A stretch of DNA of 64,000 nt from the NCBI RefSeq assembly GCF_024298765.1, contig NZ_CP101210.1; one strand, 5' to 3'. The stretch comes from Escherichia coli. Lineage in GTDB: Bacteria > Pseudomonadota > Gammaproteobacteria > Enterobacterales > Enterobacteriaceae. How positions within the stretch are numbered: the stretch's first letter is position 1; each line of letters opens with the position of its first letter. This document shows, piece by piece, positions 41,901 through 47,900 of the stretch. The position numbers are program-made.

Positions 41901-44900
41901 ATCAGGTTCAAAATTCCAGCACCGCCAGCGTAGCTGCCCTTCGGCATTGCGGATAACCAGCCGGAAATGCGTTCCCTGGTCATCCTCAATAAGCACATTG
42001 CGGTAAGCTGTTGTGACGGCAACCGCCTGTTCGCGTGAGAAAGGGCCTTCGGGCAATAAAACAGGGTGGCAGTCCGACATACCGGCTATTTTCCGATAAA
42101 TTCAACGCTGGCGCCGGTGGCATTACCGTCAGCACCAACCGTGACGGTCACTTTGTCGTACGCACGGTCTTCAGGATTGAATACTTCAAACTCAACCTTA
42201 TTGCCTTTTACTTCGTAAGAGCCAAAATCAGCGGTTTCTGTTGTTTCCTCGTCATATTCCCGGGCGTATGCCTGCCGGGCAGCCTGCAGGACGGAATCTT
42301 TATTAATAGTGGTCGTCTGTTTCGGGGAAAAACCGGCAAGTGATGTGACAAATTTCGGACAGACCTTCAGCATATCACCGCGGGTGAATTCCATTCGTAC
42401 ACCAAATGCCTGTAAAACGGACACATCACGCTCTGCTATGGAGTGAACGGCTTTTTTGACCATTTCCGGCGCCTGTCCGATTTCCACCTCAACAGCCCTG
42501 AATCCCGTCTGCTGATTACACATTTGTGATGTGGGGATCAGGTTACCGTTAATACTGATACGGCTGCCCAGGAGCGTCTGTACACCATTCGGGCATCCCT
42601 GCATCAGGCCGGTAATACCAATCGTGCCATTTTTCAGCATTACCAGCGCCTGACCATCTTCCGTCATGGTCTGACACCAGCCGTTTTTGACAGCCCAGTT
42701 GCCGGCGGAGGCGGAGAATGATGCCACAGTGAACAGCAGGGGAAAAAGAGCTCTGGTATTCATGACTGACCTCTGAAATGAACGTACGGTGTTATTGATA
42801 ATGATGGAAGGTATGCAGTGACTGTTCAGGGAATGACGTAGCCGTATATTTAGTTTTCTGTTCAACATATTGTCTCCATACCTGTCGGGACGGCTTTGGC
42901 AGGCCGGCGATCACAGGTTAAAGGTGTTGATAAGTTTATGGATGAAAGAGAAATGTGGCAGGGCGGAGATAAAACGCTCTTCAGCGACCAGACTGTGGAT
43001 GTGGCCTCTCCGTTCAAACCGTTCTGATGTCAGGCTGACTGATTTGATATCTGCCAGAGGAAAGACCTGCAGTTTTCCCTTCTGTAACGCGATCAGATAC
43101 CAGCTACCGCTGTAATAAATGAGCCGGCAGGGCTCCAGTGACGGATACCATCGCTCAGTCATCAGAGAGATGTGGATACACTGTCTTATTGCCAGGATGA
43201 GTTGCGAGAAACACTCGGGGAACGTTGCAGTGATATCCGGCGCCGGTAGCCAGATAAGGCAGGGAGAGGGCTCCTGGTTGTCGGTAAGACAGGTTATCAG
43301 TCGTCCGTTCCGGAGCGGAAGTATCCGTGCGATCCCGGTATTCTGTATAAAAGAAAGCATTTCAGGGATCGCACCTGGGCTGCTCTGTCGTCTGAGGCTG
43401 TACCTGCCATTTCTGTACTCTAAATCCAGGTGAACCAGACGCTGATGAAAATCGCGCTGTAAAGTACGTTCTGTAACGCCAAATTCATCTGACAGTGTTT
43501 TTAGTGACAGAGATTCTCCGGCCATCAGTCGGCTGATAATGAGTGATAAGCGAACCGCCAGGCGATCATGCCGGGAACGATTATCAGACATAGATGTGCA
43601 CTCCGTAAGAAAACATCTTTTATTTCATGATGTTATTATGCATCATGATGTTGAAAGGATGTGTCGCATCCGGATAATCAGGAATAAAATGCAGCAGAAA
43701 AAATATTCTTTTAATTATCTGATTTTTAAGCATGATTTCATAAAAAGAAGAATGCTCGTTAATCCAGCGACACATCCTGTCGGCGTGAGTGTGTCAGAAC
43801 AGACGCTCCCACAGTGTGATCAGCAGGTGGATAATGCGGTCCCGGGCTTTACGCAGAAGCTGTAACATCCAGGCCGGAAAACTGAAACGGGCAACGGCGA
43901 CGTCAAAACTTTTCCCGATGGTTTCACCAAAAGTCTGTTGTGCGTGTTTCTGGGCCTGTTCAGAGCGGTTTTCTCCCCGGATATGTGAATACACCGCGCT
44001 GGTTGCCTGTGGTGGCAGTGCGTGGATCATCAGCGACACAAACGCCGGAAGGTTCCAGCCGACAGGTGCAGCAACGGAGAGTACCGGAAATGATGAAGGG
44101 AACAGGGTTGCCACCCGGGCTGTCACCGTCGCCAGTGAGAGCGACTGCTGACGGGACGGGCATTTTTCTGTGGCATTCCATTCTTCAGCAGGAAACACGC
44201 GATCGGCATGGCTGAGAACAAACAGAAAACGCGAGGGATCTGCGCCTTCATTCAGTAAAAACTGATGCATGGCAATATCAGCAGCATACGCACGTTCATC
44301 AGCCCGCAGGATCCAGATAATCAGATCCAGTTCCGGTAGCAGCTGACGATAAAGTGCCCGGTATTCCTGATCATGCTGCGGTGTTTCACCAATGCCGGGC
44401 AGATCGACCAGCGTCATTCTGCGTTCACCGAGTTGCAGGGTAAGACGATGAGCCTGGCGGGTGCAGCCGTTCAGAGGATGTGTGGCGCAGATACGGGACT
44501 GAAAAATGGCATTACACAGACTGCTTTTGCCTGTACCGGATTTACCCATAATGCCAATCACGGGCTCGTAATGAATAACACAGTGGAGATGTTCAAGGAT
44601 TTTCTGGCGAATTTCTTCAGGAAGAAACGTCAGATATGATTTCACTTGTGCGGAGAGGGAAGAATGGCTGAATGACATACCGTTATCCTGTTGATTTCGC
44701 TGAACCGGATCACACTAATCCGGTTTATCATTCATGTAATATGGACGTGAAAAATGATGGAATGTCTGAATTACAGACATGATCGTTAAAGTGTAATGGA
44801 GTATGAAGTGAGTTTTTCCGAACGGGAACTAATGACATACTGCGGTTTCAGGAGATGAGAGGATGACCGGACGTAAAAACAAATGCGTCAGAAAAAATTG

Positions 44901-47900
44901 TAACAATCAGGTTTTCTCAGTAAAAATGGCAGTGGAGAAAAGACTGTGCAGAAAACATTATGAGAGGTTTTGTGAGCTCAAAAAAAGAAGAGAGCAAAAT
45001 CCTGTTCACAGATTAAATGAAGCATTGCCAAGAAAGATAAAAGGACCCAAAAGTAAGAAAAAATTAGTAAAAGAAAGAGAAATCATTAACAGCAGGAAGA
45101 AACATAAACAGGAGCAGGGACCATCGCTGGCTGAACTTAATAAAAAAGTTCGTGAGATACTGAAAACTCCGGCATGGAGAACGCTGGAAACGAGAATTCG
45201 AAGAAACGGTATCACATTTAAATCAAAAGCAGAGTTAGATGTACTTTCTGAACTTTATGCAATTTATTCATGGGTTTCATATTGCAAACGGAGCGATAAT
45301 TATTCTGTGTGGTTTTTGAATTGTCCGGATGTAAATATAAATCTTCATGTGTGCGAATGCAGGTCTTCTGAAAGCGATTGTTATCTACCATCCCGTTTTA
45401 TTATCCTTCCAGCTCCATTAAGGCAAAAAGTAAAAAGAAAATACCCTGCTAATTCGTCTGGAGTGTCAGGATATAGTGATTCAAAAAGTCTTTATAAGAC
45501 TGTTTTGTCTGTTTGTGGTGGGAAAAGAGAAACCGAATTGTTCTTTTATTCACTGCCAGTAAAGACTAATCATCATCCTTACTGGATTAAAAGTGGTGTG
45601 GTTAAAAGATTTCCGCCTATTTTTGGCTTGTTGTTTTATGAACAGGAAAGGTTAACAGGAGGTGTTTTTCGTTATGTGTTGATAAAGTTTTATAATGCTT
45701 TTAAGGAGAATTTGTTTTTTGTTGAGATTATCTCGTGCTGTTTTCTTGTTGAGTTTTTTCATGATATTGATTCATTTTTTATAAATCAACGATTAAGTAA
45801 GTTGGAAAGCTTTATAGATAAGTGGAGGGAGGGTAAAGAAATCTGGATAAAAGCATATCTACAACTGATACATAATGCATTGGGAATAACTGAAACAGAA
45901 AAACTCGTCAATCTATATAATTCATTTTTTACTGATAAAGTGGTTCTCTGGGATGAATCAGTAAAAAAAGTTAAGTGGATTTATGAGAAATAGCACCATT
46001 TAACTGAAAGCTACCATAACGTCTTTTTGATCACACGCATGATAATGCGTCTCATTTAAATTTCGTTTTTTGGGTCATGGAAATTTTCCGAACATCAGTG
46101 ATAATGAGGGTTTTGTTGTTTTTGTTTCTGCAATGTTTGAGGGCTGTTCCTGGAGACGATTCGTTGCTTGTGAGCAAGTGGTGGTCCGCTTTACTGGACA
46201 AGTTTTGCATTTGTTGAGTGGTGAAATGGAAGTAAAAAGAGCCCCTTTCTGGCAATGACTGAAAAAGTCAGTAGCGTGTGACAGTAAAAACTAACATAAA
46301 GTGATTATCGTATGATTATGACAATAACTTATAACTTTTATGAAAAGAACAACAGAAACTACGAAGCCATAACAGATTCCTGAGACCATGTTTTCTGAGG
46401 TAGAGAAAATAATTCAAGAGTAAACCAGTTTGTTTTTTGGTCAGTAAAGAACCATGCCTGATGTGAAAGCGGGTAATCAACATTCAGTCTGCATGAGTGT
46501 CTGAGAATGTTGCTAATGTCGGTATGATACTATATATACGTATTTTACTAAGTATTTTAACTAAGCATTTCAGTAAGTGTTATACACGTATTTTCATAAA
46601 CACTTCTACAATTGTTTTCGTTAAGCATTGCTATACACATCCAGTTTAGTAAATCTTTACGTTAACTAAATCAGTTTAATGCTGCTGTAAAACCTTTCTG
46701 CTTCAGCAATCAATCTGCTATTCGATTTTACTGATGTTACGTTTAACCTTTCCTGAGATTTCGAGTTTCGACGTTAGCATGAGAAAAGTATCTTTACGCT
46801 AAATCAACCCGAACTTTCCTGAAGTAATCTGACGTTCTTTTCGATGTGCTTACAACGATTCTGTTAAATGACTTTCTGGATGTTTTGATAACAATCAGAT
46901 TTAGGCATTAACGATTCCTGACGTTTTTCTTTTCCGTGTAAGGTCATTGTTTTCGTCATGAGGTTTCTTCTTGCATTGCGAAAGTGTGATGAACGGTTTT
47001 GGTGTTTTGATTCAGATGAAGTTTACGTTATCGATGGTTAATCGTTTTTATGGTGCGTAGTGAAACGTAACGCTTTCAGGAAGGGAAAATCGATTCTGAT
47101 GGGGATGATCGTGTAACGGCGTTATCTGTAAACAGGTTTTAAACATGTCATTCGCATCCGTGATTGAGTTGTGTGATTAAGCTGTAGGTTTTGGGGTTGT
47201 TGTTGATTTGCATTACCAGGAAGCGTTCTGGTTGCGTTTCTGGTGTTTTGTTTGAATGTTCTGTGGATCCTTTTCCCTTCTGACTTTTCTCGTTGTCTAT
47301 GTCGTTTTTAAATCCATTCGCTGTTCTTGAGTGTTTTTACCCTGTGTGTAGAATTATCTTTTCGTTCCGGGATGGTTTGTTCCGTTTCAATCACTCTTAA
47401 TCAGAAAGTTGTAGCATTGCTCAATGCCGGATGCCGTAAAGTTTTACCGCGGTGATTAATGATGTGAAGTCAATCCAAATCAACGGAGATCTCTCATCAT
47501 GAATCAACCAATACACAATGCTTACTGGTTATCCCGTTTTGACAGCCTTCTCGACAGTGCCCTGGCGCAGCACCGTGCCGTCTCGTTAATCCGGGTGGAT
47601 TTACGTTTCCCTGAGTATATGCCTGTCACCATCATGGATCCCGATCCGGATTCAGCGGTGATTTCTCGTTTTTTTGCATCCCTGAAAGCCAAAATTCAGG
47701 CTTACCAGCGGAAAAAAAGATGTGCCAATCAGCGTGTGCATGCAACCAGCCTGGGTTATTTCTGGTGCCGGGAGTTCGGCAAGATGTATGGCAGGAAACA
47801 TTATCACGTGATATTACTGCTCAACAAAGATACCTGGTGCTCGCTCGGGGATTTCAGCGAACCGTCTTCGCTGGCGACGATGATCCAGGAGGCATGGTGC

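Follow-up and report, generated by a model that had tools for sequence, protein, structure and literature searches.

The subject of this analysis is ORF376, an open reading frame (ORF) for 376 amino acids (aa) in an integrative island of Escherichia coli (RefSeq assembly GCF_024298765.1, contig NZ_CP101210.1). The stretch of this contig that was analysed, 64,000 nucleotides (nt) long, is called the window, and all positions are those of the window. ORF376 lies between a leftward operon headed by an Era/Der-like GTPase gene and a rightward gene of the Inovirus Gp2 / YagK-YfjJ family, called the Gp2-like gene hereafter. In near-identical genomes, RefSeq labels its product only as 'hypothetical protein' (WP_061350767.1, WP_000147743.1). 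The protein consists of a zinc knuckle, a degenerate HNH core and a helical C-terminal domain (Table 1). From comparison with its relatives and from a predicted structure, we rate ORF376 as a putative pseudo-nuclease of HNH origin with a novel C-terminal domain, used as an exchangeable module of the island backbone.

Table 1. Features of ORF376 and its surroundings, in window coordinates.
Feature	Position	Strand	Remarks
Era/Der-like GTPase gene (YfjP/YkfA type)	43794..44678	-	Divergent from ORF376; heads the leftward operon
Shared divergent intergenic segment	44679..44755	.	Common to all alleles; candidate common promoter/operator region
Palindrome AACCGGAT-N7-ATCCGGTT	44703-44725		Perfect
Allelic cassette	44756-46406	.	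~1.65 kb, GC 0.354; swapped en bloc for other alleles of the family
Palindrome ATGTCTG-N5-CAGACAT	44762..44780	.	In this allele group only; unique in the window
ORF376	44863..45993	+	ATG start; protein of an Enterobacterales family without a name
N-terminal zinc-knuckle module	44875..44997	+	Residues ~5-45; conserved ligands, model, dN/dS
Lys/Arg-rich linker	45028..45114	+	Residues 56-84; predicted disordered, pLDDT <50
Degenerate HNH-type beta-beta-alpha core	45334..45441	+	Residues ~158-193; alignment with clade C, model
C-terminal helical domain	45475..45990	+	P252, L256, R263, E288 and LYNSFF motif (Y352, N353, F356) conserved family-wide
Allele-specific non-coding tail of the cassette	45994..46406	.	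Conserved within clade A about as well as ORF376
AT-rich non-coding leader upstream of the Gp2-like gene	46407..47498	.	Common to islands with different alleles
Inovirus Gp2 / YagK-YfjJ family gene	47499..48230	+	Downstream of the cassette in most contexts

ORF376 is a gene under purifying selection

A first-pass annotation, made from the sequence alone, had given the coordinates, the length, the low content of guanine and cytosine (GC) and the basic N-terminus of ORF376, and all of these stand. The GC of ORF376 is 0.34 (0.29 at third codon positions), versus 0.527 in the GTPase gene and 0.512 in the Gp2-like gene. Lys and Arg together make up 29% of residues 1-55 and 39% of residues 56-88, and the isoelectric point is above 10. 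A GGAG-type ribosome-binding site precedes the start codon. The position beside the GTPase, also pointed out at first pass, is borne out, and 184 bp separate the two divergent genes.

The DNA of ORF376 was matched in 462 of 5426 complete E. coli genomes. In 458 genomes the match covers at least 80% of the gene at 95-100% identity, and all matches listed are annotated as 'hypothetical protein'. The ratio of nonsynonymous to synonymous substitution rates (dN/dS, Nei-Gojobori) between E. coli alleles of ORF376 is 0.19-0.31; for comparison, it is 0.10-0.21 in the flanking GTPase gene and 0.23-0.39 in the Gp2-like gene. When the window is compared with an allele of 80% identity segment by segment, dN/dS is 0.07 in the zinc knuckle and 0.27-0.51 in the C-terminal parts, and it stays below 1 in each segment. 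These substitution ratios establish that ORF376 is a genuine gene and is kept by purifying selection. Together with its presence in the 458 genomes and the full-length Klebsiella homologues at 31% identity, they set it apart from a chance reading frame. A few database copies of the family are truncated or frameshifted (P0003, P0023, P0024).

A family restricted to Enterobacterales sources

The first-pass annotation called the protein an orphan. This is refuted by a profile of close relatives, which gave 38 matches at an expect value (E) <=0.001 among 1.84 billion cluster representatives, distributed across Enterobacterales. A word-indexed search of 5.8 billion proteins returned E. coli variants at 96% and 80% identity to ORF376. 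More distant matches were a single 414-aa protein (37%) and a group of 383-aa proteins of Klebsiella and Atlantibacter (~31%). The word-indexed search with the family profile added no further clade. Members with a named source all belong to Enterobacterales, namely Escherichia, Klebsiella, Atlantibacter, Salmonella, Citrobacter, Serratia, Enterobacter, Pantoea, Providencia, Proteus and Moellerella. The full-length matches fall into four groups. Clade A comprises ORF376 and the Klebsiella-type proteins, clade B proteins of 410-465 aa, and clade C proteins of 370-430 aa. Clade D proteins are shorter, ~310 aa, and do not have the N-terminal cluster.

No member of the family is assigned by Pfam, NCBIfam or PADLOC, and all are labelled 'hypothetical'. 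ORF376 by itself has no match in Pfam, NCBIfam, PADLOC, PHROGs or the sequences of the PDB. No copy of the family was found in 50,697 phage records, and one was found in 72,556 plasmid records. Full-text literature searches by accession and gene name retrieved no paper describing the family. Identity with genes of E. coli K-12 was ruled out, as YfjI belongs to DUF3987 and YkfC has a reverse-transcriptase domain.

The zinc knuckle

The Cys/His cluster seen at first pass is real. It reads C8-x4-C13-x15-C29-x2-H32 and is conserved across the family alignment. The proposed zinc ligands C8 (44884), C13 (44899), C29 (44947) and H32 (44956) are invariant in an alignment of 25 sequences, and they are kept in at least 90% of the rows of a 32-sequence alignment that includes N-terminally truncated members. 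The structure of ORF376 was predicted by AlphaFold2 from a 32-sequence alignment including distant relatives, with a predicted local distance difference test score (pLDDT) of 81.3 and a predicted template modelling score of 0.70. An earlier model from a shallow alignment of 11 sequences was unusable (pLDDT 43.9). In the usable model, C8 and C13 are placed on a beta knuckle and C29 and H32 open a helix of residues 30-45, with pLDDT 93-95. This predicted arrangement, two ligands on the knuckle and two at the start of the helix, is of the treble-clef type. ORF376 probably binds zinc at this cluster, as judged from the conserved ligands and the model.

Within the protein, conservation and constraint are both strongest in the zinc knuckle. 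Identity between ORF376 and the Klebsiella homologue is 52% in the N-terminal part and 21-23% in the C-terminal half. Against the allele of 80% identity, the corresponding values are 96% and 68-72%. In a clade B protein of 465 aa from Salmonella (P0026), the N-terminal knuckle is duplicated in tandem, recalling the knuckle repeats of phage HNH endonucleases.

HNH ancestry and loss of the catalytic residues

The region behind the N-terminus had been left as unrecognised by the first-pass annotation. It is indeed unmatched in curated libraries, but a degenerate HNH-type beta-beta-alpha core was found within it. The origin of this core is seen in clade C, whose members share the invariant signature L-E-x-[CS]-H-x-[YF]-P-N-S-x-G-G-x-N-x3-N-x2-I-x-P-x3-N. 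Ten of the 12 clade C members scanned match an HNH endonuclease family of PHROGs at E <0.1, nine of them via phrog_1271. The best matches are those of P0050 (E 2e-6), P0030 (E 1.5e-4) and P0042 (E 2.5e-4) to phrog_1271, and that of P0030 to phrog_8660 (E 8.8e-7). These matches run collinear over the zinc-knuckle region and then the core. The clade C relatives gave no match to the HNH models of Pfam, and clades A and B gave no HNH profile match. When the motif, as a 45-column profile, was compared with 177,635 PDB sequences, the top three were McrA (LEVHHVIPLSSGGADTTDN) and two Cas8f-HNH fusions, in the exact register of the signature, with E values of 0.5-1.3 that are not significant alone. 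Foldseek against AFDB50 returned members of the family and two proteins annotated as HNH endonuclease. Clade C proteins are taken to be HNH-type nucleases from their signature and profile matches. Comparison of profiles and motifs establishes descent of the ORF376 family from phage-type HNH endonucleases with N-terminal zinc knuckles.

At the columns of the signature, ORF376 reads L-H-V-C-E-C-R-S-S-E-S-D...S-R-F-I-I-L-P-A-P-L-R-Q. The column of the catalytic His holds E165 in ORF376, and T, K or S in other members of clade A. Both Asn columns, invariant in clade C, are Arg in ORF376 (SRF...LRQ vs NL...INR). P183 is the sole core residue that is invariant family-wide. The register of the alignment is confirmed by P0004, whose 'CTFPNAESG' keeps F-P-N-x-x-x-G after the His column, and some members of clade A do likewise. 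In the AlphaFold2 model, residues 89-152 form a helical segment, and strands 161-165 and 179-183 and helix 184-193 fall at the HNH columns. Residues 210-353 form the helical C-terminal domain, with a beta hairpin at its end; this domain has no structural match outside the family. Since the core fold is kept in the prediction while the catalytic His and Asn and the profile match are lost, ORF376 would be a descendant of the HNH superfamily and not a functional member of it. We infer from the sequence and the model that ORF376 no longer cuts DNA.

By sequence, the closest known relatives of ORF376 are the free-standing HNH endonucleases of phages (phrog_1271 and phrog_8660). It has in common with them the knuckle pattern C-x4-C...C-x2-H-Y and the beta-beta-alpha element, and its clade C relatives match their profiles over knuckle and core (E 8.8e-7 to 2.5e-4). 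Unlike them, ORF376 has no profile match and neither the catalytic His nor the Asn, carries an extra helical C-terminal domain of ~170 aa without a known structural relative, and belongs to a family of chromosomal islands instead of phages. The core of clade C (LEvcH-YPNS-GG-N-x3-N) is also in register with McrA and with HNH domains of the Cas8f-HNH and Cas9 types (e.g., 6ghc). However, this similarity is confined to a core of 20 residues, and in ORF376 the His position is taken by E165.

An active nuclease or nickase with a non-canonical site, for example one that nicks an origin or transfer site for the Gp2-like replication protein, is the least probable of the explanations considered here. 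It is suggested by the retained beta-beta-alpha element, by the probable DNA cleavage activity of the clade with an intact signature, and by the location of the gene next to a long non-coding leader and a Gp2-like gene, the family of which comprises rolling-circle initiators. However, the beta-beta-alpha element of clade A has no invariant His, Asp, Glu or Asn, and its catalytic column holds E, T, K or S. Moreover, some contexts do not have a Gp2-like gene, and the non-coding leader evolves faster than the flanking genes.

Exchange of the cassette between near-identical islands

The first-pass annotation placed ORF376 in a variable region of the island. Comparison with the islands of E. coli 536 and ST131 bears this out, since the flanks are closely similar and ORF376 itself gave no match. 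Proteins of these two islands are identical to those of the window at 95-98% for the GTPase, 100% for the WYL/helix-turn-helix (HTH) regulator, 100% for a 260-aa ORF, 99% for the DUF932 protein and 88-93% for the Gp2-like protein. In contrast, tblastn with ORF376 gave no match in either island. Instead, the slot is occupied by a 407-aa clade B protein in 536 and by a 316-aa clade D protein in ST131. By hhalign, the clade A profile aligns to the 407-aa protein with a probability of 96.9% (E 1.9e-10), and weakly to the 316-aa protein (37%, E 3.6e-4).

The left border of the exchanged segment is sharp. The alleles are near-identical for 76 bp past the start codon of the GTPase gene, up to 44755, and unrelated beyond. 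The right border of the variable block lies near 46406, so that the cassette is ~1.65 kb long. Among the 5426 complete genomes, the alleles of clades A, B and D were counted 462, 975 and 742 times, respectively. In none of the islands examined was the slot empty, and it held another family member instead. Thus, in E. coli the cassette is exchanged between highly divergent alleles in a fixed slot, the flanks of which are 88-100% identical.

The ST131 cassette contains a second gene (L021:4677-5465, minus strand) for 262 aa, which is convergent with the 316-aa family gene and overlaps its end by 4 nt. It has no PADLOC match, and its Pfam matches are only chance-level ones, to C-terminal ribbon-helix-helix and RepB regulator models.

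The sharp borders bring up another explanation, in which an HNH homing-endonuclease gene invaded the slot, became fixed and inactive, and is now useless to island and host. Descent from a phage-type HNH endonuclease, the AT-rich composition, the sharp-bordered insertion between conserved genes, the lost catalytic residues and the occasional truncated or frameshifted copies (P0003, P0023, P0024) would all fit such a decaying element. However, dN/dS is low over the whole length of the gene and lowest in the zinc knuckle, and 458 of the 462 E. coli copies cover at least 80% of it. The full-length Klebsiella homologues at 31% identity are already without the catalytic residues, so the dead form has been retained for long, and the non-nuclease C-terminal domain is kept in all clades. 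A free-standing homing endonuclease gene would also have an intact nuclease centre, unlike ORF376. As to its sporadic presence between conserved genes, the picture is mixed: the borders within conserved flanks are sharp, but the slot is filled by family members in the islands examined. We consider a decaying element very unlikely.

A backbone component of one class of islands

In the window, the leftward operon continues after the GTPase gene with a WYL/HTH regulator, the 260-aa ORF (called at 225 aa in the RefSeq product), DUF905, DUF932, antirestriction, RadC, DUF987, CbeA and CbtA. Altogether ~13 contexts of family genes were examined, from at least six named genera and from further isolates and metagenome contigs. 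In clade A, the gene of E. coli (the window and four other genomes) is divergent from the GTPase...CbtA operon and upstream of the Gp2-like gene, and that of Klebsiella is divergent from the GTPase module and followed by AlpA and a Gp2-like gene. In clade B, the gene of Serratia is divergent from GTPase and WYL genes and followed by AlpA and a Gp2-like gene; that of Enterobacteriaceae RIT691 is divergent from a WYL gene and followed by a Gp2-like gene and AlpA; and that of E. coli 536 is found in the slot that ORF376 has in the window. In clade C, the Providencia gene is divergent from an antirestriction, DUF932 and RadC module and followed by a Gp2-like gene and AlpA. The Enterobacter gene is co-directional with its neighbours, in the order AlpA, family gene, WYL, DUF932, antirestriction, RadC, DUF987, CbeA and CbtA. 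In K. aerogenes (L013) and in a Logan sample (L014), the clade C gene is immediately upstream of the GTPase gene and co-directional with it; in L014, a P4-type integrase, a methylase, a GmrSD-type gene and an AAA ATPase are on its other side. In a 5.1-kb contig (L008), a clade C gene is found with an AlpA-like and a ParM-like gene. The clade D gene of E. coli ST131 is likewise found in the slot that ORF376 has in the window, together with the convergent 262-aa gene.

Two of these records call for comment. L013 derives from a 'plasmid 12' record of K. aerogenes NCTC10006, which holds a typical chromosomal island module; its clade C-like copy (L013:2-1174) is unannotated, was recovered as four tblastn pieces and is probably a pseudogene. 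In L008 (LR733917.1), the motif-bearing P0031 stands between the AlpA-like and ParM-like genes, and it could not be shown that this contig is a plasmid.

Across the contexts, the family gene is constantly found where the AlpA/Gp2 side meets the WYL/DUF932/RadC/toxin side; either the GTPase gene or the Gp2-like gene may be missing beside it. The family is thus a backbone component of one class of integrative islands, characterized by AlpA, a Gp2-like protein, a WYL regulator, DUF932, RadC and CbtA/CbeA, and often by the GTPase. The K-12 elements CP4-57 and CP4-6 do not carry the family; in CP4-57 the interval yfjJ-yfjP holds abpAB and rnlAB. The first-pass annotation had remarked that other elements of this type carry toxin or defence cargo at this place. 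For ORF376, a role as ordinary interchangeable cargo was not borne out. Divergent family members fill the slot in E. coli, Klebsiella, Serratia and Providencia, and in Enterobacter and two other contexts a family member heads the same island module. Because the slot is filled by divergent members of one family in the islands examined, ORF376 is better described as a hypervariable backbone gene than as ordinary cargo. Toxin or defence cargo is likewise unsupported: PADLOC was negative for all clades and there is no conserved partner gene. PADLOC-DB v2 gave no match for ORF376, and nine proteins, from the three other clades and including the ST131 partner gene, gave only one chance-level match (E 0.014). 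A check for co-occurring partners, proposed at first pass, found none that is conserved, as the neighbours differ between lineages. This also sets ORF376 apart from toxin-antitoxin systems and other two-gene cargo.

Islands of a comparable make-up have been described in Pseudomonas, where tmRNA-linked islands carry IntY, AlpA, RadC, YqaJ and a Gp2-like protein together with defence cargo (PMC12595487). The islands with the ORF376 family are similar in that AlpA, Gp2-like, RadC and HTH proteins form a proposed core and the cargo is variable. However, 'HNH' is absent from the text of that paper, and the source-named members of the family are all from Enterobacterales.

Given such cargo, a role of ORF376 in anti-phage defence or abortive infection has to be weighed. 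Foreign nucleic acid or a phage protein would then be detected by the knuckle and the dead HNH core, and the response carried out by the C-terminal domain or by a partner from the host; the alleles would owe their diversity to an arms race with phages. Such a role would accord with the GC of 0.34 within a mobile island, the extreme divergence of alleles between near-identical flanks, the faster evolution of the C-terminal half relative to the N-terminus, the nuclease signature in the intact clade, and the defence cargo carried by islands of this general class (PMC12595487). On the other hand, PADLOC recognizes no clade, and no partner gene is conserved. The family occupies the same backbone junction across genera, and recognizable nuclease or defence-type genes are found elsewhere in those islands; indeed, genes for a restriction endonuclease or an ATP-dependent nuclease sit downstream of the Gp2-like gene, and in L014 the methylase, GmrSD-type and AAA ATPase genes sit next to the integrase. 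Furthermore, the commonest E. coli alleles have lost their nuclease centre and are nonetheless under purifying selection, with dN/dS below 1 throughout all segments. Defence is the most serious of the competing explanations, but we regard it as unlikely.

Non-coding flanks of ORF376

The intergenic segment shared by all alleles, between the GTPase gene and the cassette, contains a perfect palindrome, AACCGGAT-N7-ATCCGGTT, 25-47 bp upstream of the start codon of the GTPase gene. It is identical in islands of all three E. coli allele types and is a candidate operator for a conserved regulator, for example the adjacent WYL/HTH protein. Promoter-like hexamers can be recognized by eye in the same segment, so all alleles may be read from one common promoter. 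A second palindrome, ATGTCTG-N5-CAGACAT, lies just inside the cassette. It was considered as an allele-specific operator and rejected: it recurs nowhere, and no consistent palindrome is shown by the other clades.

Downstream of ORF376, the first-pass annotation had reported about 1.5 kb without a convincing ORF. This is confirmed for 45994-47498: over 1505 bp, no ORF exceeds 67 aa and none is conserved between alleles. RefSeq annotates nothing in this gap in the matching genomes. Parts of the gap match 1879 of the 5426 E. coli genomes, again without a named gene. No convincing Rfam match was found in the gap; the one weak match (E 0.084, far under the gathering score) falls within the Gp2-like gene, at 47922-47989. 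With no Rfam match and no convincing repeats, the gap was rejected as an RNA gene or iteron array. A TTTCCTGA motif was also suspected there and dropped; it occurs 110 times versus ~60 in shuffled sequences when counted across the whole 64-kb window.

The gap is composed of two parts, an allele-specific tail of ~410 bp and a ~1.1-kb leader of the Gp2-like gene. In the tail, the RNA folding energy is no better than that of shuffled sequences (z 0.05, 1.22). A small partner ORF in the tail was rejected, as indels break every frame between alleles. The leader has 75-78% nucleotide identity between islands, below that of the flanking genes, and thus evolves faster than they do. Our reading of this AT-rich segment is that it serves the Gp2-like gene as a leader or regulatory region. 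It could be a silenced promoter region, and it is possibly origin-like, comparable to the intergenic region next to gene II in filamentous phages.

Possible function of ORF376

The function that we hold to be most probable, tentatively and with a little less than even confidence, is that of a non-catalytic zinc- and nucleic-acid-binding protein, a regulator or specificity factor for regulation or DNA transactions of the island, with a variable, allele-specific C-terminal half. A binding head would be made up of the zinc knuckle, the dead HNH core and the Lys/Arg linker, and the faster-evolving helical C-terminal half would confer allele-specific interaction or sensing. The target would be the life cycle of the island: either transcription of the divergent operons or, in concert with AlpA and the Gp2-like protein, excision, replication or transfer. 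Such a role would be other than that of toxin or defence cargo.

By organisation, the closest analogy to this arrangement is given by the immunity regions of lambdoid phages and by the Stl repressors of satellites, the Staphylococcus aureus pathogenicity islands and phage-inducible chromosomal islands. In immunity or master-repressor cassettes, a regulator is divergent from a long operon and is swapped between near-identical elements. Similarly, ORF376 is a divergent gene swapped as a cassette, with a conserved, putatively DNA-binding end and a variable other end. Unlike those regulators, it has no helix-turn-helix, and an allele-specific operator was not found among the palindromes near the gene or in other clades. 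The Stl-like layout is divergent in E. coli, Klebsiella, Serratia and Providencia, but co-directional in Enterobacter, K. aerogenes and L014.

Several points weigh against a binding factor of the island. Low GC and allelic replacement are likewise typical of defence genes. The ST131-type group of 316-aa alleles has no zinc knuckle, and its homology is weakly supported. Zinc binding and loss of catalysis are predictions from the sequence and a modelled structure. A search for a DNA target gave none, as the palindromes near the gene are either common to all alleles or single. Finally, the orientation relative to the GTPase/WYL module varies between lineages.

A related and quite unlikely explanation is that ORF376 is a hypervariable specificity module, in which a nuclease-derived head and a diversifying sensor choose the phage, plasmid or stress signal that activates the island. 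Activation would mean excision, replication, transfer or expression of the antirestriction/RadC/toxin operon, and the alleles would be old lineages that balancing selection preserves and cassette exchange reshuffles.

Islands of this class, including CP4-57, CP4-6 and CP4-44 relatives and many backbones of pathogenicity islands, are present in most E. coli genomes, and almost none of their backbone genes has a known function. With ORF376, a 'hypothetical protein' of hundreds of genomes becomes a defined family with a traceable origin in zinc-knuckle HNH nucleases. A testable prediction is provided as well: a dead nuclease with zinc-dependent binding to nucleic acid and a variable end for binding a partner. 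At the level of populations, at least three highly divergent alleles are exchanged as a cassette in a fixed slot. If ORF376 controls activation or specificity of the island, it would be an entry point to helper sensing and island movement. Should it serve in defence instead, the gene would be new in that role and very widespread.

Other features of the window

Just left of the island, a block of low GC (~0.33) contains an ORF for 682 aa (34595-36643, minus strand) without an NCBIfam match, and this region is missing from the otherwise near-identical genome EC02. To the right, the interval 48558-52000 contains a 292-aa ORF that is annotated as 'restriction endonuclease' in near-identical genomes and has no NCBIfam match. 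Neither an integrase nor a tRNA gene was found near this interval. It also contains remnants of insertion sequences with the EAST1 toxin gene astA (according to the annotation of EC02), a truncated second Gp2-like ORF at 51113-51490 and an AlpA-like ORF at 51559-51795. The island looks like a composite remnant near fimB/nanC.

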